NCBI GenBank assembly: GCA_021734445.1
Contig: JAIPIY010000001.1
Span: 185,306 to 249,305 of the forward strand
From: Minisyncoccota bacterium
GTDB taxonomy: Bacteria; Patescibacteriota; Minisyncoccia; Phycocordibacterales; UBA1006
Length of the DNA: 64,000 nt
Direction of reading: 5' to 3'
The first letter of the stretch is position 1; every line of letters starts with the position of its first letter. The notes below the pieces were generated by a model. That model was not told the origin of the DNA. It made no database searches and saw only the letters and a program-made list of their open reading frames with translations. Shown here one piece after another: positions 2,902 through 57,643 of this stretch. Both the position numbers and the translations under genes were made by a program.

Positions 2902-2904
2902 AGA

Positions 2905-7386: not shown

Positions 7387-7449
7387 AATGTGTTTCTTTA
7401 TTAATAAAACTTGTCTTGTAATAATTGTACTATAAACGGTTATAAAATT

Positions 7450-24065: not shown

Positions 24066-25038
24066 ACACTTCTGGCACTTTTTACTAAAATTAGTAAATG
24101 TCAGTACAAATGCCAAAAACTACACAAGAAGAACGATTACGATGGATATTACCCATCATTAACAAAGAAATGAAGCTCATTGAGGTAGCCAAGATATGCC
24201 CTCATTCACCCCGAAGTTTAAAACGATGGAAGAAGGCATATGATCTCCATGGAATGCAAGGACTCATACCACAAAGTACAAAACCAAAGACTCACCCGAA
24301 TGAAACCCCCATACGTATCAAAGAACAGGTCATTGCAAAGAGAAAAGAGACCAAACTCTGTGCATTGAAGATACATTGGAAACTTAAAAAACAAGGGATC
24401 ATTGTTCCCATCAGTACCACAAGTAAAATCCTCAAAGATGCAGGGCTTGTGAAGAAATACCGAACCAAGAAAATCAAATACAAACATATTAAGGTACAAC
24501 GACAACCAGGAGAACTCGTCGAAATTGATGTCAAACATGTCCCTGGTGGCATACAAGGCAAGAAATACTACCAATATACTGCCATTGATACTGCATCACG
24601 ATGGAGACATCTCGAGATATTTGATCAAGAGAGTACGTTCCACTCAGTTTCCTTTTTAAAGATGGTGATGCAGAAATTTCCCTACACCATCAAAGCAATC
24701 AAAACAGACAATCACGCTACGTTCACAAACTACTACCTTGGTACCAACAAACGGAGTGATGTGACCGTGAAGACACTCCATGCTTTAGATGTGTTCTGTA
24801 TGGAAAACAACATGGTGCACTACCTCATTGATCCAGGAAAGCCAACCCAAAATGGTACCGTTGAACGAAGTCATGGTGAAGACAATCGAAAGTTCTACCA
24901 GCAAGAGTCATTCTCTTCAGTGCATCAGCTCAAAAACAAGATTCGTATTTGGAATACCTATTACAATGATCTTGAACATTGTAGCTTAGGTGGAAAAACT
25001 CCTAATGAGGTGTTAGAATTAAAGTGACAGAAGTGGTT
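24066..25038 (+). mobile_element. IS481-family insertion sequence, about 0.97 kb
   Basis: Imperfect terminal inverted repeats acacttctgGcacttt (24067-24082) and aaagtgaCagaagtgg (25021-25036; 15/16 match) bracket a single DDE transposase gene. The right IR overlaps the ORF stop. Confidence 0.6.
24098..25027 (+). CDS. IS481-family DDE transposase (HTH + rve integrase core)
   Basis: N-terminal HTH (LIEVAKICPHSPRSLKRW) and an rve core containing ...YTAIDTASRW...IKTDNHATF...NGTVERSHGEDNR... Confidence 0.85.
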   Translation: MSVQMPKTTQEERLRWILPIINKEMKLIEVAKICPHSPRSLKRWKKAYDLHGMQGLIPQSTKPKTHPNETPIRIKEQVIAKRKETKLCALKIHWKLKKQGIIVPISTTSKILKDAGLVKKYRTKKIKYKHIKVQRQPGELVEIDVKHVPGGIQGKKYYQYTAIDTASRWRHLEIFDQESTFHSVSFLKMVMQKFPYTIKAIKTDNHATFTNYYLGTNKRSDVTVKTLHALDVFCMENNMVHYLIDPGKPTQNGTVERSHGEDNRKFYQQESFSSVHQLKNKIRIWNTYYNDLEHCSLGGKTPNEVLELK

Positions 25039-26708: not shown

Positions 26709-27635
26709 ATGAAAACCCTCCAAGAATGGAAACGAGAATTTCTTGAATATTTGGAAATCGAAAAAGGTCGAGCCATAAAAACAATTCAGAACTATGATCA
26801 TTATCTGACTGTTTTTATCAATCAGACAAAAGTCACCACACCCGAAGATGTCACATCTCCATTGGTTCGGGATTTTCGACTGTGGTTAAATAGACAGTCA
26901 TCAGGAAACAATCGCGCCACAGGTGCGACCATGTCAAAAAAAACTCAGAATTATTATTTGATTGCTATTCGTTCTTTTCTCAAATACATGACAAAACATG
27001 GTTGCAAAACAATGTCTGCAGATCAAATAGAATTAGCAAAAATAGGAGAACGATCTATTGATATTATTTCTGATACAGAATTACAAAGATTATTAGATGC
27101 ACCAGATGCCGAAGAAAATACTGAAATCAAATACCGAGACAAAGCAATTTTAGAAATGCTTTTTTCTACAGGGTTACGTGTATCTGAATTATGCTCTTTG
27201 ACCAACGACATTGATTTGTCTCGTGATGAATTTTCTGTACGCGGAAAAGGTGGCAAAGTTCGTGTAGTATTTTTATCCCCTGATGCAAAAACTGCCTTAC
27301 AAAAATATTTCAAAGAACGCAAGGATTTTTCAGATGCACTATTTGTCAGCGTTTCACAAAATAAAAACAAGGTAGATGCGAACAAAGGATTAGATAGAAG
27401 ATCTATTGAACGTATTGTAAAAAGATACGCAACTCTTGCTGGTATTACAAAAAAAGTAACCCCCCATGTTATCAGACATTGCTTTGCTACAGACCTTCTA
27501 TCCAACGGAGCTGACATTCGATCGGTGCAGGTAATGTTGGGTCATGCCGATATTTCAACCACCCAGATTTACACGCACGTTACGGATGCAAAACTAAAAG
27601 AGGTACATCAAAGATTTCATGGGAAGAAAAAATAG
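26709..27635 (+). CDS. Tyrosine site-specific recombinase (XerC/XerD-like)
   Basis: N-terminal SAM-like core-binding domain. The C-terminal catalytic motifs include the arginine in ...TGLRVSELCSL... and ...HVIRHCFATDLLSNGADIRSVQVMLGHADISTTQIYTHV (H-x-x-R ... Y). Confidence 0.85.
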   Translation: MKTLQEWKREFLEYLEIEKGRAIKTIQNYDHYLTVFINQTKVTTPEDVTSPLVRDFRLWLNRQSSGNNRATGATMSKKTQNYYLIAIRSFLKYMTKHGCKTMSADQIELAKIGERSIDIISDTELQRLLDAPDAEENTEIKYRDKAILEMLFSTGLRVSELCSLTNDIDLSRDEFSVRGKGGKVRVVFLSPDAKTALQKYFKERKDFSDALFVSVSQNKNKVDANKGLDRRSIERIVKRYATLAGITKKVTPHVIRHCFATDLLSNGADIRSVQVMLGHADISTTQIYTHVTDAKLKEVHQRFHGKKK

Positions 27636-30300: not shown

Positions 30301-30659
30301 ATAATAACCCCAACCACCTGATCTTTTTCTATTTTTAGCTTATTTTAACATTCTACCATTCGTGCGAAAGGTTCCATATATAAAAAGAGCTGTTTTATTT
30401 CGATTAAAATAAAAGACCCCCACCGAAATGATGAAGGTCCTCGATACGAAATGATTGGGGTCATACGCACATCCATATAGCAATACATCCAACAAGAACG
30501 TAGGGCCAATACTGAATAGTGGTCAGAATACACCAAGCAAATACAAAAAGAGCAATTATTGTTTTCATGTACATCAATTAAGGTTCGCGACCAAATGTAA
30601 CACAATCATGAATCAGATGCAATCACTATCAAGAAAGTATGTGATATACTAGTAATTAT

Positions 30660-31457
30660 ATGAAAATCATCTCATGGAACGTAAATGGTATTCGTGCTGT
30701 GCATAGAAAAAATCTTTTGGTGCCTTTTATCACCGAACATGATCCAGACATTATTTGTTTCCAAGAAACAAAAGCACAACAATCTGAATCTCCTGTTAAT
30801 ATTCCTGTATACCAAGAATATTGGAATTCTGCAGAAAAAAAAGGATACAGTGGTACTGCAATTTTTACCAAAGAAAAACCCATTTCTGTTACCTATGGTT
30901 TTTCTGAATCGGTGAATAAAAAATATAATTTCAAAGATTCTTTTGGAGACACATCAAAAGAAGGTCGTGTCATAACAGCTGAATATAAAAAATTCTTCTT
31001 GGTAAATGTATACACACCAAACGCAAAAGATGACCTGGGGCGATTACCTATGAGGTATGATAATTGGGATCCAGCTTTTCTAGAACACTGTAATGAATTG
31101 CAAAAGAAAAAACCCGTCATCATGTGTGGAGATTTTAATGTAGCTCATACCGAAGATGATTTGGCCCGACCAAAACAAAATATTGGTAACAAAGGTTTCA
31201 CCAACAAAGAACGAATCGGAATCGACAACATTATCACAGCTGGTTTTGCAGATACATTTCGATTATTCACCCAAGGTAACGGACACTACACCTGGTGGAG
31301 TCATTTTGGAAAATCACGAGAAAGAAACGTTGGATGGAGAATAGATTATTTTTTTGCTTCAAAAAAACTGACATCAAAAATTAACCAAGCAAAAATATTG
31401 CCAGATATCATGGGTTCTGACCATTGCCCTGTTTCTCTTGAAATTGACTTGGGTTAA
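30660..31457 (+). CDS. xth: Exodeoxyribonuclease III / AP endonuclease
   Basis: MKIISWNVNGIRA...ICFQETK... and C-terminal ...DYFFAS...SDHCPV are EEP-family Xth hallmarks. Confidence 0.9.
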   Translation: MKIISWNVNGIRAVHRKNLLVPFITEHDPDIICFQETKAQQSESPVNIPVYQEYWNSAEKKGYSGTAIFTKEKPISVTYGFSESVNKKYNFKDSFGDTSKEGRVITAEYKKFFLVNVYTPNAKDDLGRLPMRYDNWDPAFLEHCNELQKKKPVIMCGDFNVAHTEDDLARPKQNIGNKGFTNKERIGIDNIITAGFADTFRLFTQGNGHYTWWSHFGKSRERNVGWRIDYFFASKKLTSKINQAKILPDIMGSDHCPVSLEIDLG

Positions 31458-31494
31458 CCCGCATGATATTGTAAAAATAGATAAAACTTGAACC

Positions 31495-31926
31495 TTGGAA
31501 ATCATGAACGGACAAAAAGTTCCTCAAAGATATAATCTGATGAAGATTACTATCTGGTGTGCATTATTTGCACCCCTATTTTTCGAAATTTTTAATGCGT
31601 GTACGGGGTTTGTCCTTGTAAAGCATGGTGTTATGGAACGTTGGCCAATATTTGCCTATATGACCATCCCATTTATTGCTGGGGCAATCATCCAAAAATT
31701 ACAGCACATAAGGCCCGACATTCTCACTAGAATATTTCTCATGATGTGTTGGGTATTAGCATTCTTTGTATCTTCCCTGTTTTGGGAAAGCCTCTTACGG
31801 CAAACCCCGCAAGGAATTCAGGCAGTAAGGATGCTGGTAATGTACCCAACATTAATTACTGGTATTTGCTTTGCTTTTGGCCTAAGCATTAGGGCAACCA
31901 ACTTATTTCAAACACAGACCAAATAG
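31495..31926 (+). CDS. Hypothetical polytopic membrane protein
   Basis: Four predicted TM segments and no recognisable domain. Confidence 0.45.
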   Translation: MEIMNGQKVPQRYNLMKITIWCALFAPLFFEIFNACTGFVLVKHGVMERWPIFAYMTIPFIAGAIIQKLQHIRPDILTRIFLMMCWVLAFFVSSLFWESLLRQTPQGIQAVRMLVMYPTLITGICFAFGLSIRATNLFQTQTK

Positions 31927-31936
31927 TTCATATCAT

Positions 31937-32009
31937 CCCGCCACAGAACATCGTGGCGGGATTTTTTATACATAAAAATATGCCCGTGGTCGCTGTTGCA
32001 ACCACGGGC
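31937..32009. terminator. Back-to-back terminators: cccgccacagaacatcgtggcggg+T7 and gcccgtggtcgctgttgcaaccacgggc
   Basis: Two GC-rich hairpins between the convergent genes 31495-31926 (+) and 32032-32667 (-). Confidence 0.55.
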
Positions 32010-32031
32010 ATTTGATTTTCAGGAGCTTTTT

Positions 32032-32667
32032 TCAGGATCCGAATTCCTGCCGATAAAGAAGGGCTATGTCACCCATCTGATCTTTAAAAGCAACCAGTTT
32101 ATCGCGAAAATTTGCAGCCTCTTCATAGTGGTGCTCCCTTACTAATCTGTCTTTTTCAGAATTCAAACGGTCAATCTCCAGAAAATTTGGATACTGTGGA
32201 TTCAAAAAATCCAGTCGCTTCTGAATACCTTTCAAGTAATCTTGCGAATCTTTTGATGCGACCAGTTCTACCGAGAAAGAAAAATCGGGCGACCAATAAC
32301 CCAAATCTTTGAATTCGATTAAAATCTCAGCGAGACCTTTTCCGATGCGGAATGCCTCCCTCATTTTTCTGAACTGAATACGACCAGCCCCTGACCCTTC
32401 TTCAATCCAGACATTTGAGATGTCGGAAAAAGAAAACGGCGGAATTTCTTCTCTGTTCTGCAAAATAAATACGACAGATTGTATTTCTTCTGTCGAAGCT
32501 GTCACCGGATTCAATACAGATCCACTGCAAAGCAAATTAATCTGCCAAGCAAAATCTTTCGATTGTGAATTAATACCAATTTTCGGTTGATCCAAGACTA
32601 GACGGAGCAACAAAAGGTTCAAAGCGTTCATGGTGTAGCTGTTAATGGAACAATAATTTAAAAACAC
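32032..32667 (-). CDS. Hypothetical protein with a C-terminal UVR (UvrB/UvrC-type) motif
   Basis: The C-terminal LEIDRLNSEKDRLVREHHYEEAANFRDKLVAFKDQ fits the UVR-domain consensus. The true start is probably at Met 32631. Confidence 0.45.
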   Translation of the reverse strand: MFLNYCSINSYTMNALNLLLLRLVLDQPKIGINSQSKDFAWQINLLCSGSVLNPVTASTEEIQSVVFILQNREEIPPFSFSDISNVWIEEGSGAGRIQFRKMREAFRIGKGLAEILIEFKDLGYWSPDFSFSVELVASKDSQDYLKGIQKRLDFLNPQYPNFLEIDRLNSEKDRLVREHHYEEAANFRDKLVAFKDQMGDIALLYRQEFGS

Positions 32668-32763
32668 TTTTACATATTTATTTCATAATGTCAATTTGTG
32701 TATTTTTATTTCATCAATATACCAAAAGGTTTTTAAAAATAGGAATTAAATACTGTAATGATT

Positions 32764-33540
32764 TTAAACTTTTGGTAAAGAATTCCAAAGCAATTTGAAC
32801 ATTGCTTGTAATAAACCTTGCATAACATTGTCTCTAATAAGAACAATCTTTATTTCTTTGCCATCTGCACGAATAAGACCAATAGTATTTCCAAATATTA
32901 TAAATACACCCGGAATAGAAACCTTTTCTTCGAGAAAACGAAAATCTCGAAATTTTCCAATTCTTTCACTCATTTTTTTATATTTAAGAACAGATCTATC
33001 AGTAATAGAATATGCTGTCGTGTTAAATTCCATTCTGCGCAAAGAGTATAGTTTATATAGCTGCTCAACAGAAAAAACATTAAACATCGTATCCATAGTA
33101 CCGAACCAATAGACATCAGATCTCTCATTTAGCATTTTTTCAATTAAAACTAGGATGCCAGGTTTTCCTTCAAGGGTTTCAACATCAGTTTTTTCATTAA
33201 CATTTTTATCTAAATTTTCTACAAGAGAAATCATATTTTCTACAAAACCTTCTTTTCTTTGCAACTCTTCTTTTTCTTCATTTATGAATACGCGAAGCGT
33301 CTGTGGTTCTGCGATGCCGAGGAGCGTTCTCTTCCCTTTTCTTTTTTCAATAAGCAATCCTTTCTTTTTTAATTCTTCAAGCTCAAGATACACAGTAGTC
33401 CTTTTTATATTTATCAAGCGTGAAATTTGCGAAGGATTCAAAAATCCTTCTTTTGCAAGCACGCTATATACAAGAGATTGTTTTTCAGTTAATCCCAGAG
33501 CCTTCTTTGCTAAGCTATTTATTTCCTTAAGTGTCGACAT
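32764..33540 (-). CDS. TrmB-family transcriptional regulator (second copy)
   Basis: wHTH LTEKQSLVYSVLAKEGFLNPSQISRLINIKRTTVYLELEEL plus the TrmB C-terminal domain. Confidence 0.65.
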   Translation of the reverse strand: MSTLKEINSLAKKALGLTEKQSLVYSVLAKEGFLNPSQISRLINIKRTTVYLELEELKKKGLLIEKRKGKRTLLGIAEPQTLRVFINEEKEELQRKEGFVENMISLVENLDKNVNEKTDVETLEGKPGILVLIEKMLNERSDVYWFGTMDTMFNVFSVEQLYKLYSLRRMEFNTTAYSITDRSVLKYKKMSERIGKFRDFRFLEEKVSIPGVFIIFGNTIGLIRADGKEIKIVLIRDNVMQGLLQAMFKLLWNSLPKV

Positions 33541-33708
33541 ATTATGTCACTTTATTATATGTATAATATCCTTATTTTGCAAGTTATTTAAAGATTTATT
33601 TATAATAAATAATAACTTATTCATATCTATTGGCATTCTTTTGAGATTCAAGATATTGTGTGTTTAGAAACTAGGGAATAGTTCCTTGATAATTAAATAG
33701 AAAATAAG

Positions 33709-33984
33709 ATGACAATCTTCACTTTTATCTGTTTAATCCTCTACTCTTGCGTGGGATTTCTAGGATTATATTCTTGCTTTAAGGCAACAAAACGCGTTAA
33801 AAGGATTTATTCAAAAAAAGCACTCCTGATTATTGCACCCGCTATGTACATGCTGGAATTTATTCCATTAGTATTTTTAAGTGCATTAATTGCGGTGCCA
33901 AATGGTTGGCTCACTGTGTTGTTACTCTTATTACCATTGGTGTTGAATATAGTGGTTGTCAAAATTGCTTCTATTAAAAGATGA
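33709..33984 (+). CDS. Small three-TM membrane protein
   Basis: 91 aa, entirely hydrophobic helices. Divergent from the TrmB gene. Confidence 0.35.
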   Translation: MTIFTFICLILYSCVGFLGLYSCFKATKRVKRIYSKKALLIIAPAMYMLEFIPLVFLSALIAVPNGWLTVLLLLLPLVLNIVVVKIASIKR

Positions 33985-34027
33985 CAGACATACTAGCCCT
34001 ACAGACAATTATGTCTGTAGGGCTTCT

Positions 34028-35542
34028 TTATTTCTTTACTCCATGCTTTTTGTGAAGTTTCGCTTTTTCTTCTTCATCAACGGTTTCTTTTTTTTCTTTC
34101 CCTTGATCCCCTAATTGTTTCAATTCCCCATCAGATAATTTTTCTAATTCTGTTACACGTGAAACAAGATATTCAATAGTATTTTTTGTAGGATCTTCTA
34201 TGATTTCTTCTAACAATGCATGTAGCATCCAACCCATACGTGGACCCGGTTTCATATGCATTTCTTTGATCATATAACCACCATCGATTTTTAGCTGTGA
34301 AACACTGATTGGGTCGCGCAAAGTCTCTTCGATCATTGCAAAATATTTTCGCAGACGGTATGGAGCTTCTTTTTTCTTCATACCTACACGGTCACATTCG
34401 CGAATGCGCATTAATTCCCAAATAGCATGATCTTCACGTGAAACATCTTTTTCTACATCTGTTGGTGCCATATTATTAATCATTCTTCGCACGGGAGATA
34501 GGGTTATTATTTCGGTATCCGAGAAAAACATATGCCAACGAACCAGCCGTGAAACTATTTCAATATCTTTTTTAGGGAATTTCAATCGTGACATAATATC
34601 TTTTGCCATTCGTGCACCCACTACCTCGTGCCCAAAGAAAGTATACTTATCTTTGTTTTTATCATATCGTCTGGTTCGTGGTTTTCCAATGTCATGAAAC
34701 AATGCAGCCAGTTTCACATGAAACGAATAGTTTTTATCAGCAGCATGCTGTAATGCATGACAAAGATGATCAAACACATCATATATATGTGCACCTTTTT
34801 GTTCGCATTTTATTCCCTCTAATAGTTCAGGAATAATATATTGCATCAGCCCTAGTTTCACGAGAAACCCAATACCCACGGATGGTTCACGTGAAACAAT
34901 AATTTTTACAAATTCATCACGAATTCTTTCACGTGAAACCTTTTCCAATAGATTAGCATTCTCGAAAATTGCCTGCATTGTTTCATGTGAAACAGAAAAC
35001 CCTAATTGAGCCGAAAAACGTACTGCTCGCATCATACGTAATGCATCTTCTTTGAATCTTTCGTCAGGATTTCCCACTGCTCTAACGGACATGTCTTTTA
35101 TATCCTCATGTCCTTTATATAAATCAATCAAATGTCCGATAGACAGATCGTACGCCATGGCGTTTATGGTAAAGTCCCGACGCATCAAATCGTCCTCTAA
35201 TTTTTTACTGAATACTACCTGATCAGGATGTCGATGGTCGGTGTATCCAACGTCTAGACGATATGGGGTAATTTCCACGGTACGAATATTCGAATCAGCA
35301 TCTTCGGTTTCATCTACAATACCCACCGTCCCAAATGTATTTTCATACACAACCCGAAAACCAGCGGTTTCAAAAACCTGCATAATTTGTTCAGGGTTTG
35401 CATCAGTTGTAATATCCCAATCATTTGGGGTTCGCCCCATAATCATGTCACGTACACAACCACCCACCAGATATGCTTCGTATCCAACTGATTGCAATGT
35501 CTTTATTTGAGCTATAATTTTTTCTGGCACCTGAAATTCCAT
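34028..35542 (-). CDS. cca: CCA-adding tRNA nucleotidyltransferase with an HD domain
   Basis: Pol-beta NT motif YLVGGCVRD...DWD and the HD motif LAALFHDIGKP. 504 aa. Confidence 0.9.
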   Translation of the reverse strand: MEFQVPEKIIAQIKTLQSVGYEAYLVGGCVRDMIMGRTPNDWDITTDANPEQIMQVFETAGFRVVYENTFGTVGIVDETEDADSNIRTVEITPYRLDVGYTDHRHPDQVVFSKKLEDDLMRRDFTINAMAYDLSIGHLIDLYKGHEDIKDMSVRAVGNPDERFKEDALRMMRAVRFSAQLGFSVSHETMQAIFENANLLEKVSRERIRDEFVKIIVSREPSVGIGFLVKLGLMQYIIPELLEGIKCEQKGAHIYDVFDHLCHALQHAADKNYSFHVKLAALFHDIGKPRTRRYDKNKDKYTFFGHEVVGARMAKDIMSRLKFPKKDIEIVSRLVRWHMFFSDTEIITLSPVRRMINNMAPTDVEKDVSREDHAIWELMRIRECDRVGMKKKEAPYRLRKYFAMIEETLRDPISVSQLKIDGGYMIKEMHMKPGPRMGWMLHALLEEIIEDPTKNTIEYLVSRVTELEKLSDGELKQLGDQGKEKKETVDEEEKAKLHKKHGVKK

Positions 35543-35628
35543 ATAGCATAAAGTGTATACTAATTGGGTTGATTTTCAAAGCAAAACAGTATACACTTTG
35601 AAAGTCTTATCAAAGATGTGCAATATAT

Positions 35629-35700
35629 GCACCTGTGGTGAAATGGATATCACAACGGTCTTCGGAACCGTTATTCTAGGTTCGAATCCTGGCAGGTGCA
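35629..35700 (+). tRNA. tRNA-Arg (anticodon TCG), CCA not encoded
   Basis: Hand-folded cloverleaf: acceptor gcacctg/caggtgc, D-arm gtga-aatggata-tcac, anticodon arm acggt-cTTCGGa-accgt, T-arm ctagg-ttcgaat-cctgg, discriminator A. Confidence 0.75.
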
Positions 35701-35868
35701 CAAAAACAATCGAATACAATACAACGTATTTTATACGTATTGCTTTTGCAATGTGTCAGGATTTGAAAAAGTCGCCCGCAAAGCCGACAAAGTCGTAGGC
35801 GACGACGGGGTCGAGCGAATGAGATATTTTAAGTCCGCGCGACGGACGAAAAAATATCCATGAGGGTG

Positions 35869-35895
35869 ACTGAATCCTGGCAGGTGCACAAATAA
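35869..35895 (+). repeat. Direct repeat of the 3' 21-23 nt of tRNA-Arg (gaatcctggcaggtgcacaaa), about 170 bp downstream
   Basis: Exact match to 35682-35704. att-site-like duplication of the tRNA 3' end. Confidence 0.5.
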
Positions 35896-36001
35896 ATATA
35901 AAACAGTGAAACATACTATGTTTCACTGTTTTATATTTAGAGTAATAAAATAAAAAAAACCGCCAGCATTACCTGAAACGGATTTGGAGTCTCCCCCTAA
36001 A

Positions 36002-36280
36002 TTAATTATTCTTTGGAATTCTTTGTTCAAGTAGGTACACAGCAAGCCATAACAATGAAACAATAACCACTGACCAAAAAAACAAGCAACCGACACTTGC
36101 CATCACAAAAATAGCAAATATATTAAGAATATCAAAACTTTCAATGAATCGAATAAGTAATTTGAAAAGATCAAAAGTGCCATCCTTAAAAAAGATCCAA
36201 TATGGAACATAATAAAAAACAAAAAGGATGCACGTCCAAAAAAGAAAACTGAGAATTCCAGGAACAATTTTTGCCTTCAT
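36002..36280 (-). CDS. Small hydrophobic membrane protein (hypothetical)
   Basis: 92 aa, three TM-like stretches. AT-rich, so it may be spurious. Confidence 0.3.
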   Translation of the reverse strand: MKAKIVPGILSFLFWTCILFVFYYVPYWIFFKDGTFDLFKLLIRFIESFDILNIFAIFVMASVGCLFFWSVVIVSLLWLAVYLLEQRIPKNN

Positions 36281-36391
36281 GAATGCATGATGTTGGTTTC
36301 ATTTAGTGTCACTTTTTTATTAAATAAAGTCAATATATTAAGTAAAAAGATTGCATATTCATAAAAAAATAGCTATACTACAAAACGTTAT

Positions 36392-36407
36392 GCGGGTATG
36401 GTTTAGT
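36392..36407 (+). repeat. Duplicate of the first 16 nt of tRNA-Gly(GCC) (gcgggtatggtttagt), about 90 nt upstream of the intact gene
   Basis: Exact 16-nt match to 36479-36494, followed by an unrelated hairpin tccgccagaaaacaaggcgga. Confidence 0.4.
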
Positions 36408-36478
36408 TCCGCCAGAAAACAAGGCGGATAAAGTCCGAACACGTACGGTTAACATAATTACATAAAGCAACGACAAAT

Positions 36479-36549
36479 GCGGGTATGGTTTAGTGGTAGA
36501 ACACGTCCTTGCCAAGGATGAGTCGGGAGTTCGATTCTCCCTACCCGCA
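36479..36549 (+). tRNA. tRNA-Gly (anticodon GCC), CCA not encoded
   Basis: Acceptor gcgggta/tacccgc, anticodon arm cgtcc-tTGCCAa-ggatg, T-arm gggag-ttcgatt-ctccc. Followed by a long hairpin terminator at 36555-36594. Confidence 0.85.
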
Positions 36550-37303
36550 CAAAAACACAAAAGTCTGAATATTATAATATTCAGACTTTTGTGTTTAACC
36601 CAGAAAGAAAATGAATCAAAATAAGATGATCAGCTGGAGATTATATAAATTGCTTTAAAGTACATCTATAGAATCTAACGGACATATGTGATACATGTCC
36701 GTTATTACCACGTTTTTCTTTAGATTAATACAATAATAAAAGACACCATCCTGAAAAATCCCCTGAAATCAACAAATTGTGGATATCTCTGTGTACACGG
36801 TGCACAAATAACACATTTTTATAAACGACACAAGATGTCTTTTATACTAAAAACCGTAAAAAAGCCTTATCCTACAACACCCCACCGTTTTTTCACATAA
36901 ATATTGTTTTTTAAGGGATTTTTACTATTCACAGATATCAAAGTGTTTCACGTGAAACATATGTAAAAATACACAAAATGTTACATGTGAAACACTATTT
37001 TTATACTAAAAGCTGCTGACATAGTTTCACGTGGCACAAATTAGAGATATTTAGTCTGAGCATATTAAAAAGTTTCATGTGAAGCAAAACTCTGGTTCAT
37101 AAATTAGTTTAACATGAAACTTTTATAAGAAATCAAAAATCCCAGATTCCCGAATACTCGGGAATGACAAATGAGACATAATAGTCCATCTCCATCACTT
37201 TCAGCGAATAAAAATAACTTATGGCAAATAAAATCCCGATACATATACTTGTTTCACATGAAACGCAAAAGTAGTATAATAAAAACACCTGAAAAGGTTT
37301 CAC

Positions 37304-37708
37304 ATGAAACAATTTACATCAAAAACACAGAAAATAGGGGAAATTGGTGAATCTTTGGCTTGCAAGTTTCTCGTGAAACATGGTTTTTCGATTATTGAGA
37401 GAAATCACACAAGAAAATGGGGTGAAATCGATATTATTGCGGAAAAGAGCAGCGTTTTGCATTTTGTCGAGGTAAAAACAGTTTCATGTGAAACAATTGA
37501 TAAAATAGGGAATGATCCAAAGTATATGCAAGTGATTCAGAACGTGCACACAAAGAAAGTTTCTCGTATGAAAAAGATTATTCAAACATACCTATTAGAG
37601 AATAACGTTTCACATGAAACCAAATGGCAATTTGATATTATTGCTGTTCATCTGGAAAAAGATCACAATCGTGCAAAAATTACTATACTAGAGAATATCA
37701 TCCTTTAA
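37304..37708 (+). CDS. YraN-family (UPF0102) predicted endonuclease
   Basis: GEIGESLACKFLVKHGFSIIERNHTRKWGEIDIIAEK...HFVEVKT matches the YraN core and has an insertion. The ATG is at the centre of a GTTTCACATGAAAC palindrome. Confidence 0.7.
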   Translation: MKQFTSKTQKIGEIGESLACKFLVKHGFSIIERNHTRKWGEIDIIAEKSSVLHFVEVKTVSCETIDKIGNDPKYMQVIQNVHTKKVSRMKKIIQTYLLENNVSHETKWQFDIIAVHLEKDHNRAKITILENIIL

Positions 37709-37856
37709 TATTATAAGGAGAGGTACCTTTATTTGATTTGCGTTTTCGACGTTCTTCATGTATCATTGTTGTGTACTTTGAGAAAATATGAGAATAGAGA
37801 ACAATGGTAAATATGTTAATTTTAAAGAGTGAAACATTTTATTTTTTGTGACATAT

Positions 37857-37896
37857 GTCGGGGTGTGGTGTAACGGCTAACATGCTGGTTTTGGGG
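37857..37896 (+). repeat. Copy of the 5' half (about 40 nt) of tRNA-Pro, 30 nt upstream of the intact gene
   Basis: tcggggtgtggtgtaacggctaacatgctggttttggg is identical to 37926-37965, then diverges. Confidence 0.55.
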
Positions 37897-37926
37897 AATA
37901 ATAGAATGTACTTTTATAATTTGTGT

Positions 37927-37999
37927 CGGGGTGTGGTGTAACGGCTAACATGCTGGTTTTGGGTACCAGTGACTCTGGGTTCGAATCCCAGCACCCCGA
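37927..37999 (+). tRNA. tRNA-Pro (anticodon TGG), CCA not encoded
   Basis: Acceptor cggggtg/caccccg, anticodon arm ctggt-tTTGGGt-accag, T-arm ctggg-ttcgaat-cccag, discriminator A. Confidence 0.85.
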
Positions 38000-38055
38000 C
38001 AGAGATTGTAATGTGCTTTGTGTATTATTCCAGATGTCCGGGGGACATCTGTGGC

Positions 38056-38088
38056 CCAAAGGGCAGTGACTCTGGGTTCGAATCCCAG
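38056..38088 (+). repeat. Copy of the 3' 33 nt of tRNA-Pro (variable loop, T-arm and acceptor), about 55 nt downstream of the intact gene
   Basis: gtgactctgggttcgaatcccagcaccccgaca is identical to 37969-38001, with no matching 5' acceptor strand. Confidence 0.55.
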
Positions 38089-38207
38089 CACCCCGACATA
38101 CGCCGTAAGAAATTTTGTTGTTCTTATTCATATGTGCAAGAAATCTCATTACTGTAACTAGGTTTATAATTTATTAAAAATTACACAAAACCCTAACAAT
38201 AATCATT

Positions 38208-44234: not shown

Positions 44235-44308
44235 GCGGGACTAGTTTAGTGGTAGAATGACTGCCTTCCAAGCAGTAGACAAGAGTTCGATTCTCTTGTC
44301 CCGCACCA
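44235..44308 (+). tRNA. tRNA-Gly (anticodon TCC) with encoded CCA
   Basis: Acceptor gcgggac/gtcccgc, anticodon arm actgc-cTTCCAa-gcagt, T-arm aagag-ttcgatt-ctctt, discriminator A then CCA. Confidence 0.85.
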
Positions 44309-55132: not shown

Positions 55133-56113
55133 TTAATACAAAGAGATTTTCAAGCTTTTTTGAAGATTATATGTATTCCCGTGGCTCAATAGCCCTCGAT
55201 ATGAATTTACTGTTTCAGGTTTTGGATAATTTCTAAGGTTTTTTATCACCTTTCGCTTGGTTGTTGTTCTTATCTGACGATAATGAGGAAAATGTACCCA
55301 GCCCAAGAAATCAACGCCCGAAGCATATGTTTTTATGTACACTTTATCTGGATGAAGCTGTAATTTTAACGTGTTATTTAAAAATAAGTTTATGTTAGAT
55401 AATAAATTTTCAAGATATTTTTTGTCTTGAGACAAAATAACGAAATCATCAGCATATCGAATATAATACCTTACCCGAAGTTCTTGTTTCATATACATAT
55501 CAAACTCATGCATATAAATATTCACAAGCAACTGCGATGTCAGATTCCCCAGTGGCAACCCAACACCTTCTCGAGTTATCTGAAAGCTTTTTATCACTTG
55601 ATGTATCAACCACAACATCTCATCATCTGCAATATGTCGTTTTAAAATAGATTTTAGTACATCATGATCAATACTTGCAAAAAATTTTCTCACGTCACAT
55701 TTTAAAACGTAACATGTTTTTGTATTATTTTTTGATACTTTATTTGCGAACACCTTAAATCTTTCAAACGCCCGATGGGTACCTTTATATTTACGACATG
55801 AATATGAGTCATAAATAAATCTATCATCAAAATACCAATACAATTCTTTATAAATTAAATGATGTACCACCCTATCACGAACAATTGCTTTATGAATATT
55901 TCTTGGTTTAGGGTCAGAAACATTAAATGCAAAATATCCTGAATGTTCGTAGGTTCTTGTATGTAACATAGTATGTAGTTCTATAATATTATCTGCAAGA
56001 TGTGCTTCAAATTCCATGACATCTTTTTTATTACGCTTGCCACGGATAAAACGCCCCCATGTCGAGAGAATATTTTCTATTGATATGATATTATGATAAG
56101 TATGAGTGAACAT
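55133..56113 (-). CDS. Diversity-generating retroelement (DGR) reverse transcriptase
   Basis: RT motifs 1-7 are present, including YADDFVIL. The DGR-specific motif-4 signature GLPLGNLTSQLLVNIY (SQ instead of SP) is also present. 326 aa, adjacent to the TR/VR pair. Confidence 0.8.
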   Translation of the reverse strand: MFTHTYHNIISIENILSTWGRFIRGKRNKKDVMEFEAHLADNIIELHTMLHTRTYEHSGYFAFNVSDPKPRNIHKAIVRDRVVHHLIYKELYWYFDDRFIYDSYSCRKYKGTHRAFERFKVFANKVSKNNTKTCYVLKCDVRKFFASIDHDVLKSILKRHIADDEMLWLIHQVIKSFQITREGVGLPLGNLTSQLLVNIYMHEFDMYMKQELRVRYYIRYADDFVILSQDKKYLENLLSNINLFLNNTLKLQLHPDKVYIKTYASGVDFLGWVHFPHYRQIRTTTKRKVIKNLRNYPKPETVNSYRGLLSHGNTYNLQKSLKISLY

Positions 56114-56495
56114 AATAAAAACATTAAATCTACCCCCCCCCCCGTTAGTATTGGTACGAGCAAAAGAAGTGTATCGTGTGTGGCACTTGCATCTTTCTCA
56201 TGTTAAACGAGTTGATCGTTATACTATTGGAACAAAAATTGATGATGAATTTATATCTATTCTTGAAATAATATTCCGAGCAACTTTTGCGTATGATAAA
56301 TTTGAAAAACTTTCTCTTGTGTCACAAGCTCTTGGTAAAAATGATCTTCTAAAATTCTTTCTGCAATTAGGTTGGGAACAAAAAGTTCTTAATCACACAA
56401 TATACGGACAACTCATTATTCTTTTGGATGAAGTTGGACGTATGTTAGGTGGTTGGAAGAAAAATCTCCAAGAAAAAACTCCCACCAACAAATAA
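56106..56495 (+). CDS. Avd-like accessory variability determinant, on the opposite strand to the RT
   Basis: The C-terminal LLDEVGRMLGGWKKNLQEK resembles the bAvd C-terminal EVGRILGSWI helix. About 125 aa with helical-bundle-like composition. A non-ATG (GTG/TTG) start is needed. Confidence 0.55.
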   Translation: MNIIKTLNLPPPPLVLVRAKEVYRVWHLHLSHVKRVDRYTIGTKIDDEFISILEIIFRATFAYDKFEKLSLVSQALGKNDLLKFFLQLGWEQKVLNHTIYGQLIILLDEVGRMLGGWKKNLQEKTPTNK

Positions 56496-56515
56496 GTTAG
56501 TGGGAGAAAAAAATG

Positions 56516-56637
56516 AGTAGCAGAAGCACAACAGGCAATTGTCACCGTCCCAGTCATTCTCGAAGTTCCCGAGGTTGAACTTCCAGTCACCGTCCGAGTT
56601 CCGGTTCACGTTCGGCACCCTGTGGTAACCGTCAGAG
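56516..56637 (-). repeat. DGR template repeat (TR)
   Basis: About 122 bp, aligning without gaps to the VR at 56983-57104. 20 of 22 mismatches are minus-strand A in the TR against another base in the VR. In frame it encodes an Asn(AAC)-rich segment NVNRNSDGDWKFNLGNFENDWDGDN. Confidence 0.75.
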
Positions 56638-56977
56638 GACGCCCAAGCTTTTTGTATGAAATATTGTCTATTCCACCACATCTAACACCAGTCAGACGTT
56701 GTATTTCATTTGGAGTTTAAAAACTCTCTCATATTTCACACCGACTTATTTTTGTTTTTTCATTCAAGGAGGCTCTCGTTTCAAAGGCGTACCCATCAAA
56801 CTTCTCGCCAAAACCCTGTACGAGATTTCAATGCCGTGAAGTCGTAACCGCACGTTCGTATCTACTTTCCAAAATCAGTATAACTGAAATATAAAAAATA
56901 AAAAAGAGCACTTGCTTTCGCAAGTGCTCAAAGGGTCAAAGACCCAAATTAGAAACAAGGTACCAAGTGCCAAAGGA

Positions 56978-57643
56978 CTATAAGTCGCAGAAGCACAACA
57001 GGCAACGGACACCGACCCAGTCAAGCCCGAAGTCCCCGAGGAGGAACCAACAGCCACCGTCCGAGCACCGGAACACGAGCGGCACCCTGCGGTAACCGTC
57101 AGAGTCTTTCCACAGAGAATCCTTTTCATCAAAGGACACTGTGTATTTACCCACCGGAAACTCGTCTGGCTTGTTGGCTTGCAACAAAGTGAGACCTTGT
57201 CCACCCACGAGGATGGCATGTTGCTTCGCAAGGAATCTCATACAATCTTCGCTGGTTACCGTTGCCAATATCGGGAAGATTCGCACGCGATACTTCTTGC
57301 TCGGCTCCAGCTCGTTGGTCGCTTTCGCAAAATTCTTGCTGGTAAGGGCATCATTGAAGTAATACGTGGTTGAAAGCAGTTTGGTCTTCCCGGCAAAGGT
57401 ATCGAGCTGGGTGTCGTGCTTGTAATCTGACGGCACCGTGAACTCGAAATCCTTTATTGCGGGACCGAAACGCTGGTCCACCATGGCAAGTTTTTGCAGG
57501 ATCGGCTTGATCTGTTTCTGCATTTCACCACCAGATTTGATAATTTCCTGAGCCTCTTCTTTTGAGAGGTTCAACGCCCTGAGACCATCTCGAAAGAGGT
57601 CGGTCAGACGATTTTCTTGGCTTGACGTGATCTTTTCAGTCAT
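56978..57643 (-). CDS. DGR target protein with the variable region at its C-terminus
   Basis: The last 41 codons (...DGYRRVPLVFRCSDGGCWFLLGDFGLDWVGVRCLLCFCDL) overlie the VR. A hairpin agcacttgctttcgcaagtgct lies 50 nt past the stop. Confidence 0.7.
   Translation of the reverse strand: MTEKITSSQENRLTDLFRDGLRALNLSKEEAQEIIKSGGEMQKQIKPILQKLAMVDQRFGPAIKDFEFTVPSDYKHDTQLDTFAGKTKLLSTTYYFNDALTSKNFAKATNELEPSKKYRVRIFPILATVTSEDCMRFLAKQHAILVGGQGLTLLQANKPDEFPVGKYTVSFDEKDSLWKDSDGYRRVPLVFRCSDGGCWFLLGDFGLDWVGVRCLLCFCDL
56983..57104 (-). other. DGR variable repeat (VR) inside the target gene's 3' end
   Basis: See the TR entry. The 3' 17 nt adjacent to the stop are near-identical to the TR (IMH-like), and the 5' 14 nt are identical. 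Confidence 0.75.

Follow-up and report, generated by a model that had tools for sequence, protein, structure and literature searches.

Three intact tRNA genes in the DNA of a Candidatus Nomurabacteria/Paceibacteria (CPR) bacterium lie beside partial copies of themselves, with short segments of other sequence in between. What are these copies, and how did they arise? An earlier note on this DNA had read them as footprints of integrase-mediated integration and excision, as decayed elements, or as the outcome of recombination among tRNA-proximal repeats. We analyzed the whole stretch (64,000 nt, hereafter the window) together with approximately 160 related loci.

tRNA genes and their partial copies

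The genes and their copies are arranged as follows:

35629-35701, + strand: intact tRNA-Arg(TCG), without encoded CCA (ARAGORN; Rfam tRNA, 64.6 bits)
35872-35892, + strand: Arg 3' partial copy, 21 nt exact (direct repeat)
36390-36407, + strand: Gly 5' partial copy, 18 nt exact, comprising 2 leader nt and tRNA positions 1-16 (direct repeat)
36479-36550, + strand: intact tRNA-Gly(GCC) (ARAGORN, Rfam)
37856-37895, + strand: Pro 5' partial copy, 40 nt exact, comprising TGT and tRNA positions 1-37 (direct repeat)
37927-38000, + strand: intact tRNA-Pro(TGG) (ARAGORN, Rfam)
38064-38098, + strand: Pro 3' partial copy, 35 nt exact, comprising tRNA positions 41-74 plus 1 (direct repeat)

All four partial copies listed in the earlier note were confirmed as exact direct repeats, terminating at mature tRNA ends. 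The Arg copy, given there as 21-23 nt at 35869-35895, about 170 bp downstream, runs from tRNA position 56 to 3 nt beyond the mature end and lies 170 nt downstream of tRNA-Arg; the 16-nt Gly duplicate (36392-36407) is exact and is preceded by the 2 leader nt. The Pro 5' copy, placed at 37857-37896, was essentially right; it ends in the anticodon loop, 31 nt ahead of tRNA-Pro. For the Pro 3' copy, described as 33 nt at 38056-38088 and 55 nt downstream, the exactness stood, but the coordinates were off by 8-10 nt and the length was too short: its 35 nt lie 63 nt downstream of tRNA-Pro, with T arm and acceptor 3' strand intact. In shuffled versions of the window, chance is expected to give at most 0.01 matches to the two shortest copies even with 2-3 mismatches allowed, and no further copies of the four tRNAs were found elsewhere in the 64 kb window.

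Mis-joins at repeated tRNA sequence in a metagenome assembly could mimic such structures. In the related assembly L003, a scaffold gap of 100 N falls exactly on the Pro repeat, and Logan contigs break inside the Pro repeats, as repeats longer than k=31 would lead one to expect. However, an independent Logan assembly of run SRR12088350 matched the window exactly over 30351-36514, a span that includes both insert and copy at tRNA-Arg and at tRNA-Gly and thus gives the two structures base for base. Two other Logan contigs end within the Pro repeats and carry the same outer junctions, the left junction of the Pro 5' copy being seen in contig L002 and the right junction of the Pro 3' copy in contig L001. 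The spacers consist of sequence that is found nowhere else in the window, and the same module types recur in many independent assemblies. An assembly artefact is therefore extremely unlikely.

A structured module downstream of tRNA-Arg

The Arg unit spans 35702-35892 and consists of a 167-nt insert and the 21-nt copy. E1, E2 and E3 are names coined here for the module superfamily that holds this insert and copy. The parts of the unit, which is of E2 type, and the hairpin that follows it are:

35717-35742, + strand: AT-rich hairpin CAATACAACGTAT TTT ATACGTATTG, then CTTTTG (read from sequence)
35748-35755, + strand: GCAATGTG, a degenerate copy of tRNA-Arg positions 1-9 (GCACCTGTG) (read from sequence)
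35757-35763, + strand: P1 5' strand CAGGATT, with 7/7 Watson-Crick pairs to AATCCTG in the 3' copy
35764-35871, + strand: E2-type core of junction TGAAAAA, P2, GG and P3, a segment order common to six distinct E2 units
35771-35806, + strand: P2 of the E2-type core, GTC/GAC closing a GC-rich hairpin
35809-35871, + strand: P3 of the E2-type core, a long, GC-tipped AT hairpin closed by GGTC...GACT
35893-35939, no strand assigned: perfect 23-bp hairpin following the Arg copy, terminator-like on both strands

The E2 structure was derived from per-sequence folds and hand decomposition of six units, which MAFFT had misaligned. The Arg insert matched this plan segment by segment, with all seven P1 pairs and with P2a and P3 intact. 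Among the six units P2a covaries (GTC/GAC, GCC/GGT, GAC/GTC, GGC/GCC and ACC/GGT). The hairpin at 35717-35742 occupies the place of hairpin 1, often terminator-like, in the E2 modules of L029, L046 and L127. Segment 35748-35755 is the acceptor-5'-like part of the module, and at this place L046 and L084 have exact copies of tRNA positions 1-8 where the window has a degenerate one. The P1 5' strand differs from the T-stem 5' strand of tRNA-Arg (CTAGG) and was not copied from it, while the Arg 3' copy serves the module as the 3' strand of both P1 and the acceptor helix. Where relatives lack the insert, the hairpin at 35893-35939 lies directly 3' of tRNA-Arg.

The covariance model of E1 (R1) found no match in the window, and the Arg unit is therefore assigned only at the E2/superfamily level, on the basis of the hand-made structural alignment of six units. 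At that level it shows the superfamily characters: a position 3' of a tRNA on the same strand, a tRNA copy at its end, P1, the junction and two hairpin domains.

Related modules in other genomes

In the approximately 160 related loci, modules were present only directly 3' of tRNA-Arg, tRNA-Pro, tRNA-Gly(TCC) or tRNA-Gly(GCC), on the same strand. The E1 covariance-model search of these loci (1.9 Mb) gave 32 matches, all of which (32/32) start -4 to +9 nt from the 3' end of a tRNA or of another module; none lay away from such ends or on the opposite strand. The end copy runs from T-loop position 54-56 to A73-C in the 32 E1 matches and in the six distinct E2 units. Each module is predicted to form a three-way junction set in T-loop-like sequence, the duplicated tRNA 3' end pairing with a complementary stretch inside the module. 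The plan common to the superfamily is P1 (internal stretch and copy), GAAAG and two hairpin domains, the last of which closes at, or directly beside, the copy's first nucleotide.

The E1 alignment showed pairing in 98.8% of cells, compared with 37-62% when the partners were slid, and compensatory changes in 17 of the 24 pairs; 0/500 shuffles reached these pairing and covariation values. G-U pairs were commoner than other mismatches, and the junction motifs GAAAG and ACCTG were invariant. The internal complement was not copied from the T-stem 5' strand of the tRNA and pairs in a shifted register with G-U pairs. Since the P1 register differs between tRNA types, P1 helices were searched for in each E1 sequence separately, with a mean of 7.0 bp for the module's own copy versus 5.5 bp for those of other tRNA types, a weak discrimination because T arms resemble each other.

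The copy carried the allele of its own tRNA in 27/27 cells (three variable sites, four tRNA-Pro 3' haplotypes). E1 sequences clustered by tRNA type and not by genome, and their divergence followed that of the Cca protein (Spearman 0.57 for Pro and 0.64 for Arg), E1 being kept in hosts with 10-28% amino-acid difference between their Cca proteins. Tandem arrays were also seen: locus L136 has tRNA-Pro followed by two module-plus-copy units, and L107 has two 5' units. Decayed module copies were present among the relatives. The modules co-diverge with their hosts and are often lost.

As to gene layout, E1 lies between tRNA-Pro and tRNA-Gly in several relatives, with tRNA-Gly beginning 4 nt past the copy. 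In the window, a promoter-like site stands upstream of the Gly 5' copy and the terminator-like hairpin lies past the Arg 3' copy. E2 units have a terminator-like hairpin between the tRNA and the module, so that E2 may be expressed only by read-through.

A search of Rfam 15 found no family for the window inserts (E up to 1), where the tRNAs alone scored, nor for E1 in L063 (E up to 10). No published description of such modules was found in the literature on CPR tRNA introns, tRNA-like RNAs and partial or truncated tRNAs. When compared by eye with the cores of self-cleaving ribozymes, the E1 and E2 junctions misfit the hammerhead in strand order and junction lengths, and no HDV-like, twister, pistol or hatchet core was recognisable in them.

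The 5' copies and the tRNA-Pro locus

The features around tRNA-Gly and tRNA-Pro are as follows:

36351-36379, + strand: promoter-like TTGCAT, 17 nt, TATACT, ending 12 nt ahead of the Gly 5' copy (read from sequence)
36408-36478, + strand: Gly 5' module body, comprising a GC hairpin, a tRNA-like segment and an AT-rich spacer
36408-36428, + strand: GC hairpin TCCGCC..GGCGGA of this body, at the D-loop position
36437-36446, + strand: GAACACGTAC of this body, a 9/10 match to tRNA positions 22-31
36553-36596: perfect hairpin 3' of tRNA-Gly(GCC)
37896-37926, + strand: spacer 1 of the Pro locus, with TATAAT at 37915-37920 (read from sequence)
38001-38063, + strand: spacer 2, between tRNA-Pro and the Pro 3' copy
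38023-38031, + strand: TATTATTCC in spacer 2, the complement of GGAATAATA in spacer 1
38031-38051, + strand: hairpin CAGATGTCC GGG GGACATCTG in spacer 2
38054-38064, + strand: mini-hairpin GCCC AAA GGGC in spacer 2

The Gly 5' copy and the body behind it form a truncated pseudo-tRNA leader. The promoter-like stretch was not listed by a consensus promoter scan, and a homologue of it stands directly 5' of tRNA-Gly in L003 and L083. A hairpin homologous to the D-loop hairpin was found at tRNA-Arg in L003.

At the Pro locus, the 15 nt before the 5' copy also resemble the leader of the real gene, giving 52 nt at 90% overall. The spacer 1 stretch GGAATAATA (37895-37903) is complementary to 38023-38031, and the remaining spacer 1 pairs imperfectly with the tRNA trailer. 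Spacer complementarity of at least 9 bp arose in just 13/5000 shuffles. The intergenic stretch of spacer 2 showed no homology to L003 or L083, and the Pro 3' unit has no relatives in the data (approximately 160 loci).

These features raise the possibility that the outer Pro halves (positions 1-37 and 41-74) together make a single functional tRNA-like gene, nested or split, whose loop holds the intact tRNA. The complementary spacers would join the halves, which would act as a processing scaffold or as spare halves. The 256-nt region does fold as one long nested stem (z-score -5.9), the 9-bp spacer complementarity is rare in shuffles, as stated above, and the inner tRNA has a leader and a trailer that pair with each other as well. 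Some of the fold energy is trivial, however, coming from the duplicated acceptor strands; positions 38-40 are missing, L083 has neither half, and no homologous arrangement occurred in the approximately 160 loci. Bacteria are also not known to have a tRNA splicing endonuclease. A nested gene is accordingly highly improbable.

The copies could also be neutral debris of a mutational hot spot, in which slippage and template switching at highly transcribed, hairpin-rich tRNA genes leave partial tandem duplications with filler DNA that have neither function nor selfish propagation. The duplicated leader sequence of the 5' units, the tandem arrays and clean deletions, the variable copy lengths and the uniqueness of the Pro 3' unit agree with this. 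Such debris would nevertheless lack homologous cores at different tRNAs, the covarying pairs and the invariant GAAAG and ACCTG, and would not last across hosts as divergent in Cca as those that keep E1. As a general explanation it appears unlikely, although the Pro 5' and 3' copies of the window, taken by themselves, may be such debris.

Filled and empty sites in close relatives

The earlier note had proposed aligning the orthologous tRNA loci of relatives, and variants with and without inserts were indeed found between close relatives. The two closest, L003 and L083, have clean empty sites for most of the window inserts, and their flanks are otherwise collinear with the window. L003, a same-species MAG (98% Cca amino-acid identity), has no insert at Arg-3', Gly-5' or Pro-3' and carries an Arg-5' module not present in the window; its Pro 5' copy is ambiguous because the 100-N scaffold gap lies there. 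All four inserts are absent from L083 (Cca 91% amino-acid identity). In both relatives tRNA-Arg continues straight into the following hairpin, without the 3' copy. Exact-protein look-ups returned only contigs of the same run and no strain variants. On the tree ((window, L003), L083), gains of the window inserts are more parsimonious than losses, which favors recent insertion. A conserved structured leader and variable insert boundaries had been set against each other as outcomes in the earlier note; the first, which was to refute its reading, was half borne out, the modules being both conserved in structure and variable in presence.

These data bear on whether the modules are non-autonomous mobile elements that insert into tRNA loops (T-, D- or anticodon loop) and duplicate the target from the insertion point to the tRNA end. 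The copy would then be a long target-site-like duplication, the mover would be an enzyme encoded elsewhere (a recombinase guided by RNA or by structure, or a reverse transcriptase that works on tRNA-like RNA), and the internal segments complementary to the tRNA would be a targeting guide. Presence and absence vary among strains at 87-94% nucleotide identity, with the preference for gains noted above, and the homologous core stands beside four tRNA types. The D-loop hairpin module that the window has at tRNA-Gly and the one that L003 has at tRNA-Arg are homologous, and neither genome carries the other's. The fixed copy boundaries at loop positions 54-56 in all E1 and E2 units, the internal complement that was not copied from a tRNA strand, and the tandem arrays point the same way.

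Against mobility, E1 sequences cluster with tRNA type and diverge together with the host, and transposition between sites must therefore be rare. The modules have no terminal inverted repeats such as those of MITE or IS transposons, and the duplications of 16-40 nt are too varied for a single staggered-cut mechanism. The copies track tRNA alleles long past any insertion, and the 5' units also duplicate approximately 10-15 nt of leader, like plain tandem duplications. No enzyme is encoded in or next to the modules: the reverse transcriptase of the window (55133-56113), 17 kb from the tRNAs, belongs to a DGR with its own template/variable repeat pair (56513-57104), which speaks against a retroelement product, and the only tyrosine recombinase is Xer-like and lies approximately 8 kb off (26709-27635). 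On balance we regard mobile elements of this kind as rather unlikely.

Integrase-mediated integration as a possible origin

The integrase reading of the earlier note takes the copies as attL/attR-type footprints of tyrosine-integrase elements in tRNA genes, and the tiny segments as what remains after decay or repeated integration and excision. The Arg (56 to 73 plus 3) and Pro 3' (41-74 plus 1) copies are loop-to-3'-end repeats of the att type, beginning in the T loop (Arg) or just past the anticodon loop (Pro) and continuing to the tRNA end. Starts in these two loops were reportedly described by Williams in 2002 as the classical sublocations for integrase crossover. In L111, a 1.1-kb cassette with a lipoprotein-like gene, and not an integrase, lies between tRNA-Gly(TCC) and its 3'-end copy; this was the only case among the approximately 160 loci of a tRNA-end copy at a distance above 400 nt or on the opposite strand. 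Most partial tRNA genes of prokaryotes stem from integrated elements (PMC9897764), which also counts in favor of this reading, as does the serial integration reported at ssrA in Dehalococcoides, where several short repeats are left (PMC3146451).

Several observations do not fit. No integrase or recombinase gene adjoined any copy in the window or in the approximately 160 related loci, and the genes neighboring the tRNAs are ordinary (cca, a small membrane ORF, yraN, CitMHS, MgtE and others). The inserts are only 31-170 nt long, without foreign cargo or ORF remnants. The compensatory changes in E1 are unlike decaying DNA, the Arg insert is a conserved structured module that retains the E2 plan, and the copies co-vary with their tRNA over long divergence. 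An attP restores the tRNA 3' end and would not produce 5' copies, so the Gly and Pro 5' copies do not fit a 3'-end repeat. Among IMG/VR viral contigs the E1 motif gave 0 matches and the E2 motif 2, both in GC-rich phage coding sequence without a tRNA. We therefore consider footprints of integrases or decayed integrated elements a very unlikely source of the copies.

Proposed explanation

We propose, with our confidence evenly divided for and against, that the partial copies are the tRNA-derived arms of co-transcribed tRNA-mimic modules, which arose by local partial duplication and are homogenised and deleted through direct repeats. Each copy would be a module arm and not the edge of a lost large element. 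A 3' module, represented in the window by the Arg unit, would lie between the tRNA and the downstream terminator-like hairpin and mimic the acceptor/T-arm half of its own tRNA. Its putative order is a degenerate acceptor 5' strand, a complement of 6-10 nt to the T-stem 3' strand, (A)TTCGAAAG, a two-hairpin domain and the tRNA 3'-end duplicate; the last, from T-loop position 56 to A73-C, would close P1 of the three-way junction and give the acceptor 3' strand. The 5' modules (Gly and Pro) would be truncated pseudo-tRNA leaders between the promoter and the real tRNA, retaining the acceptor 5' strand and the D arm, sometimes with a D-loop GC hairpin, and stopping in or near the anticodon loop.

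Such modules probably originated from local partial duplication of a tRNA gene with a structured insert in the loop of the pseudo-copy. They would be part of the tRNA transcript and would fold as RNA. Repeat and tRNA may stay identical because the direct repeats undergo unequal exchange or gene conversion, and the same repeats could delete a module cleanly to give the empty sites of sister strains; recombination among tRNA-proximal repeats, the third suggestion of the earlier note, fits both the tandem arrays and these clean empty sites. As for the module RNA itself, our guess is that it mimics a tRNA minihelix, is dispensable and is handled by the enzymes of tRNA processing, acting either as a hitch-hiker or as a decoy.

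Several points count against this proposal, among them the terminator-like hairpin ahead of the module in E2 units, the greater parsimony of gains for the window inserts, the lack of relatives of the Pro 3' unit and the ambiguous Pro 5' copy of L003. The homologous core at four tRNA types needs past transfer between tRNA genes, for which local duplication alone is insufficient, and in which three interleaved segments came to match the new tRNA. Gene conversion over a 19-nt identity tract is inefficient. The Pro spacers form an inverted repeat around tRNA-Pro that the proposal does not lead one to expect.

Comparison with known systems

The modules resemble integrase att duplications in repeating a tRNA 3' portion from a loop to the mature 3' end while the tRNA stays intact, in varying between strains and in allowing serial repeats. 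They differ in their small size without integrase or cargo, in being structured and covarying, in including 5' copies, and in that the repeat co-evolves with the tRNA and the module holds its complement. With the tRNA-like domains of tmRNA, YrlA/Y RNA, mascRNA and viral 3' structures they share an acceptor/T-arm coaxial helix built from distant segments and a retained T-loop-like UUCGA, and by analogy they would be plausible substrates of RNase P, RNase Z and CCA-adding enzyme. In contrast to those domains they have no Rfam family, carry the large domain in the T loop and not at the anticodon-arm position, copy the neighboring tRNA's own sequence, are fused to that gene and have mismatches in the acceptor helix.

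Archaea are reported to have mobile tRNA introns as well as tRNA genes that are split or tri-split (Fujishima et al. 2010; Fujishima et al. 2009, as cited in PMC10714607). These share with the modules short structured inserts at several tRNA loop positions, related inserts in different tRNAs and, for split tRNAs, halves with complementary flanks. The differences are the bacterial host, for which no splicing endonuclease is known, the intact, high-scoring and uninterrupted tRNA always present at each site, and an interrupted copy that is a partial pseudo-copy; no bulge-helix-bulge motif was identified in the modules.

A structured scaffold of approximately 100-170 nt followed by approximately 19-21 nt identical to part of a tRNA gene also resembles TnpB omega-RNA, IS110 bridge RNA and the homing guides with which CRISPR-transposons target tRNA genes, a likeness we take as a lead only. 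No TnpB, IscB, IS110 or Cas genes were found in a scan of 20 of the 38 ORFs with 180 aa or more and in precomputed Pfam calls for tRNA-flanking genes, and none stands inside or beside the modules. Unlike the guides of such transposon RNAs, that of the modules is base-paired internally, and there are no transposon ends.

A bolder and unlikely, though not negligible, reading makes the modules a new class of tRNA-gene-specific elements, in which a tRNA-minihelix-like RNA directs its own copying or maintenance at the cognate tRNA loop. The internal guide-like complement and the 3'-terminal tRNA copy would then direct copying into that loop, or maintenance there, by a mechanism that duplicates the tRNA end, for example RNA-templated or structure-guided insertion. 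Such elements would be a bacterial analogue of tRNA-derived SINEs or mobile tRNA introns.

Significance

Partial tRNA genes in prokaryotes are routinely taken as integration scars; here they are parts of conserved, covarying RNA-like modules, joined to tRNA genes, across a CPR lineage. The modules also offer a clean natural case in which a gene and its 19-nt satellite copy evolve in concert. The modules break assemblies and may mislead the annotation of tRNAs and islands in CPR genomes. If mobile, they would be a new kind of tRNA-targeting element. If expressed, they would add a new class of tRNA mimics, in organisms whose RNA-processing machinery is minimal.

Partial copies of tRNA genes in the window

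Four tRNA genes were found in the window. Exact partial copies on the same strand adjoined three of them, which confirms the earlier note on the Pro, Gly and Arg tRNAs:

37856-37895, Pro 5' copy: TGT plus tRNA positions 1-37, ending 31 nt ahead of tRNA-Pro (37927-38000)
38064-38098, Pro 3' copy: tRNA positions 41-74 plus 1 nt (35 nt), 63 nt past tRNA-Pro
36390-36407, Gly 5' copy: 2 leader nt plus positions 1-16, 71 nt before tRNA-Gly(GCC)
35872-35892, Arg 3' copy: position 56 to 3 nt beyond the mature end, 170 nt after tRNA-Arg

The Pro 3' copy exists as that note had reported, but its coordinates had been off by 8-10 nt. For the two shortest copies, shuffles gave at most 0.01 matches expected by chance, and no further copies of these tRNAs were found elsewhere in the 64 kb. 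tRNA-Gly(TCC) (44235-44308) has an encoded 3' CCA and no partial copies; tRNA-Arg, tRNA-Gly(GCC) and tRNA-Pro have no encoded CCA (all end A73-C-A), and all three carry modules.

The Logan assembly of run SRR12088350 matched the window base for base over 30351-36514, a stretch that holds both the Arg and the Gly structures. Two more Logan contigs, which end within the Pro repeats because these exceed k=31, had the same outer junctions as the window. Given this agreement, it is unlikely that the copy structures are an assembly artefact.

Filled and empty sites in related loci

Using the adjacent CCA-adding enzyme gene (cca; 34028-35542, minus strand) as the anchor, we retrieved 80 loci each from species-representative genomes and metagenomes (L-numbers below), all belonging to Candidatus Nomurabacteria or Paceibacteria (CPR). 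A cluster of tRNA-Arg(TCG), Gly(GCC), Pro(TGG) and Gly(TCC) beside cca was widely conserved in this set. Relative to cca, tRNA-Arg and tRNA-Gly(GCC) are flipped in some of these ~160 loci compared with others, which suggests repeated small inversions inside the cluster.

Exact partial copies were present beside tRNAs in about one quarter of the related loci. L003, a same-species MAG with 98% amino-acid identity, was without the Arg-3', Gly-5' and Pro-3' inserts (copy plus intervening sequence) and carried an Arg-5' module, made up of a 20-nt copy and a further 72 nt, that is absent from the window. The next relative, L083 (91%), had clean empty sites at all four window inserts. In loci free of the Arg insert, the hairpin that follows the window copy directly abutted tRNA-Arg, and in those free of the Gly insert, tRNA-Gly was directly preceded by a promoter-like region. 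Such a recent presence/absence pattern speaks for the main alternative explanation, a truly mobile element whose target is duplicated on insertion, which we consider unlikely overall.

Conserved structure of the 3' inserts

The 3'-type copies lay 90-180 nt downstream and nearly always ran from T-loop position 54-56 to A73-C. Across genomes, the sequences separating copy from tRNA were homologous whether the tRNA was Arg, Pro, Gly(TCC) or Gly(GCC), and are named E1 here; that a single core has spread to four types of tRNA is a further point in favor of a mobile element. From 5' to 3', E1 begins with a short tail similar to the acceptor 5' strand. Hairpin 1 and a complement of the T-stem 3' strand follow, then (A)TTCGAAAG, hairpin 2, ACCTG, hairpin 3 and the tRNA copy. 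RNAalifold analysis of 12 sequences revealed the three hairpins, with compensation at 14 of 24 pairs. A covariance model detected 32 instances in 1.9 Mb; each followed a tRNA or another module on the same strand, with its start at -4 to +9 nt from the end of that tRNA or module. In the 32-sequence alignment, 98.8% of cells were paired, compared with 37-62% when partners were slid, and 17 of 24 pairs had changed on both sides; none of 500 shuffles reached the observed values. G-U pairs were much commoner than other mismatches, which favors the view that the tRNA-sense strand would fold as RNA. No Rfam family matched E1 or the window inserts.

The Arg insert of the window was a member of a second family, E2, which belongs to the same superfamily as E1 by its shared structural plan. 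We compared six distinct E2 units (window-Arg, L005-Arg, L029 and L127 Gly(TCC), L046-Pro and L046-Gly(GCC)), for which a three-way junction of helices P1, P2 and P3 is proposed. In P1, an internal complement pairs with the start of the copy and is followed by GAAAG. P2 starts as a 3-bp helix and continues through an internal loop, GGA/GA in most cases, into a GC-rich hairpin that varies, followed by GG; P3 is an AT hairpin closed by GGTC...GAC(C/T), and it ends either at the first nucleotide of the copy or next to it. P2 covaried among the six units (GTC/GAC, GCC/GGT, GAC/GTC, GGC/GCC, ACC/GGT). In the window, P1 is formed by CAGGATT (35757-35763) and AATCCTG of the Arg copy, with 7 of 7 pairs. 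CAGGATT is not a copy of the T-stem 5' strand of tRNA-Arg (CTAGG), and it pairs in a register shifted by one; the internal complement of E1 is likewise not such a copy, and its helices reach 12 bp including G-U. Ahead of the complement, tRNA positions 1-8 are copied exactly in L046 and L084; at this place the window Arg unit has a degenerate GCAATGTG. From the P1 complement and this acceptor-like segment, the Arg unit is a predicted mimic of the acceptor/T-arm half of its own tRNA, in which a T-loop-like UUCGA would contain the putative three-way junction. In a third family, E3 (L105, L114 and L117), the element of GTC, AT hairpin and GAC is used again.

5' units and the Pro locus

The window Gly unit and the L003 Arg unit were built alike. 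Each opens with tRNA positions 1-16 or 1-20, and a GC hairpin (CCGCC..GGCGGA) occupies the D-loop position; slightly diverged D-stem 3' and anticodon-stem 5' strands (9 of 10 and 11 of 12 matches) come next, and then an AT-rich spacer that is similar to the ancestral leader at its end. These two units are putative truncated pseudo-tRNA leaders downstream of a promoter-like site. Among 101 tRNA-Pro genes with enough flank, at least 11 distinct Pro 5' units were found; such units are common in other genomes, where they contain positions 1-30 exactly, an anticodon loop that is altered and larger than normal, positions 38-49 and a small hairpin, with no T arm.

Along with the window Pro 5' copy (positions 1-37), ~15 nt of leader was duplicated at lower identity; a tandem duplication homogenised later over the tRNA part alone would look like this. 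The window Pro trailer region was wholly unlike those of L003 and L083. The spacers on either side of tRNA-Pro are imperfect inverted repeats of each other; within them, GGAATAATA (37895-37903) pairs with TATTATTCC (38023-38031); a run at least this long occurred in 13 of 5000 shuffles. The whole 256-nt region was predicted to form a nested stem with the tRNA at its tip (z-score -5.9, partly trivial owing to the duplicated acceptor strands), and this arrangement was found at no other comparison locus.

Inheritance and turnover of the modules

E1 sequences grouped by tRNA type and not by genome (mean distance 0.21 within type versus 0.32 between), and their divergence correlated with that of the Cca protein (Spearman 0.57 for Pro, 0.64 for Arg). 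These results suggest that the modules were mostly inherited with their tRNA, among hosts differing by 10-28% in Cca protein. Their patchy distribution on the Cca similarity tree implies many probable losses or gains.

Copies were mostly exact and carried the allele of their own tRNA in 27 of 27 cells (three variable sites, four tRNA-Pro 3' haplotypes); decayed or truncated copies occurred in L036, L040, L071, L076 and L127. L136 (1-580, reverse strand) contains tRNA-Pro, two tandem E1-plus-copy units and then tRNA-Gly(TCC) with its own E1; the tandem units are ~93% alike, as read by eye rather than computed, and hairpin 1 differs between them by a compensatory change. L107 (4120-4400, reverse strand) has two tandem 92-nt 5' pseudo-tRNA units before tRNA-Pro. 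GC-rich hairpins (GCGGGCTTGYCCGCC...) also occurred upstream of several tRNAs in the L136/L107 set. We infer that unequal exchange between direct repeats would produce all three features: tandem arrays, homogenised copies and clean deletions, visible as the empty sites.

Mobile genes and the proposed integrase-mediated insertion

Pfam was scanned against 20 of the 38 window ORFs of at least 180 aa, and precomputed Pfam calls were used for tRNA-flanking genes. Genes around the window tRNAs were ordinary. The following mobile-type features were found:

24098-25027: IS481-family transposase (Pfam)
26709-27635: Xer-like tyrosine recombinase (XerD model 243 bits, below the 330-bit cutoff)
55133-56113, minus strand: reverse transcriptase ORF of a diversity-generating retroelement (DGR)
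56513-56637: DGR template repeat
56980-57104: DGR variable repeat, at the 3' end of ORF 56978-57643 (minus strand)

The Xer-like protein was the only tyrosine recombinase among the ORFs scanned, and neither it, the transposase nor the reverse transcriptase lay near a tRNA copy. The segment 24098-27635 is slightly GC-richer, lies ~8 kb from tRNA-Arg and has no flanking tRNA fragments. In the DGR (55133-57643), template and variable repeats are 82% identical, with mismatches almost solely at template adenines on the coding strand.

Only L111 among ~160 loci had tRNA-end copies more than 400 nt away. There, on the reverse strand at 6201-7520 (plus-strand 2801-4040 being reverse-strand 6201-7440), tRNA-Gly(TCC) and ~100 nt downstream are repeated 1.14 kb on, enclosing a 296-aa ORF on the opposite strand with a lipoprotein-like N-terminus; it is the sole kilobase-scale insert at these tRNAs. 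Scanning a viral collection with the module motifs gave nothing relevant.

Partial tRNA genes are, as a general rule, derived from integrated elements (PMC9897764), but neither conserved, covarying inserts nor 5' copies are explained by this rule. The earlier note had read the duplicated tRNA ends as footprints of integrase-mediated integration and excision; this reading is only partly supported. The copies are exact and their presence varies, but an integrase origin does not fit the ordinary neighbors, the covarying inserts and, among the genes scanned, the lack of a nearby recombinase.

A palindrome near cca and yraN

A 14-bp palindrome, GTTTCACRTGAAAC, had 18 window sites with at most two mismatches (36 matches with both strands counted, versus an expectation of 1.65 counted in the same way). 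Almost all lay in two clusters (34152-34993 and 36945-37620), with another at 15036 and half-sites at 35903-35929 and 37828-37836. Seven sites were within the cca ORF and ten upstream of and inside yraN, reading V-S-H/C-E-T or F-H-V-K. In most related loci a single perfect copy lay ~500-600 nt upstream of cca; 5-17 matches per locus, both strands counted, occurred in the clade of the window (L003-L009, L021, L030, L032, L046, L047, L083-L086).

Origin of the modules and consequences for assembly

We hold with about even confidence that these units form a superfamily of small tRNA-appended, tRNA-mimicking modules. They would arise when part of the tRNA gene is duplicated locally and a structured segment is inserted in a loop, would most likely be co-transcribed with the tRNA, and would be homogenised and deleted through their direct repeats. 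A non-exhaustive search of Rfam and the searchable literature returned no earlier description of such modules.

In L003 (CAZAZY010000001.1), a 100-N scaffold gap lies exactly at the repeat, between an apparent Pro 5' copy and tRNA-Pro. Because the contig ends flanking the gap have 40 nt in common, this apparent copy may be their unmerged overlap. Short-read assemblies break at such modules.
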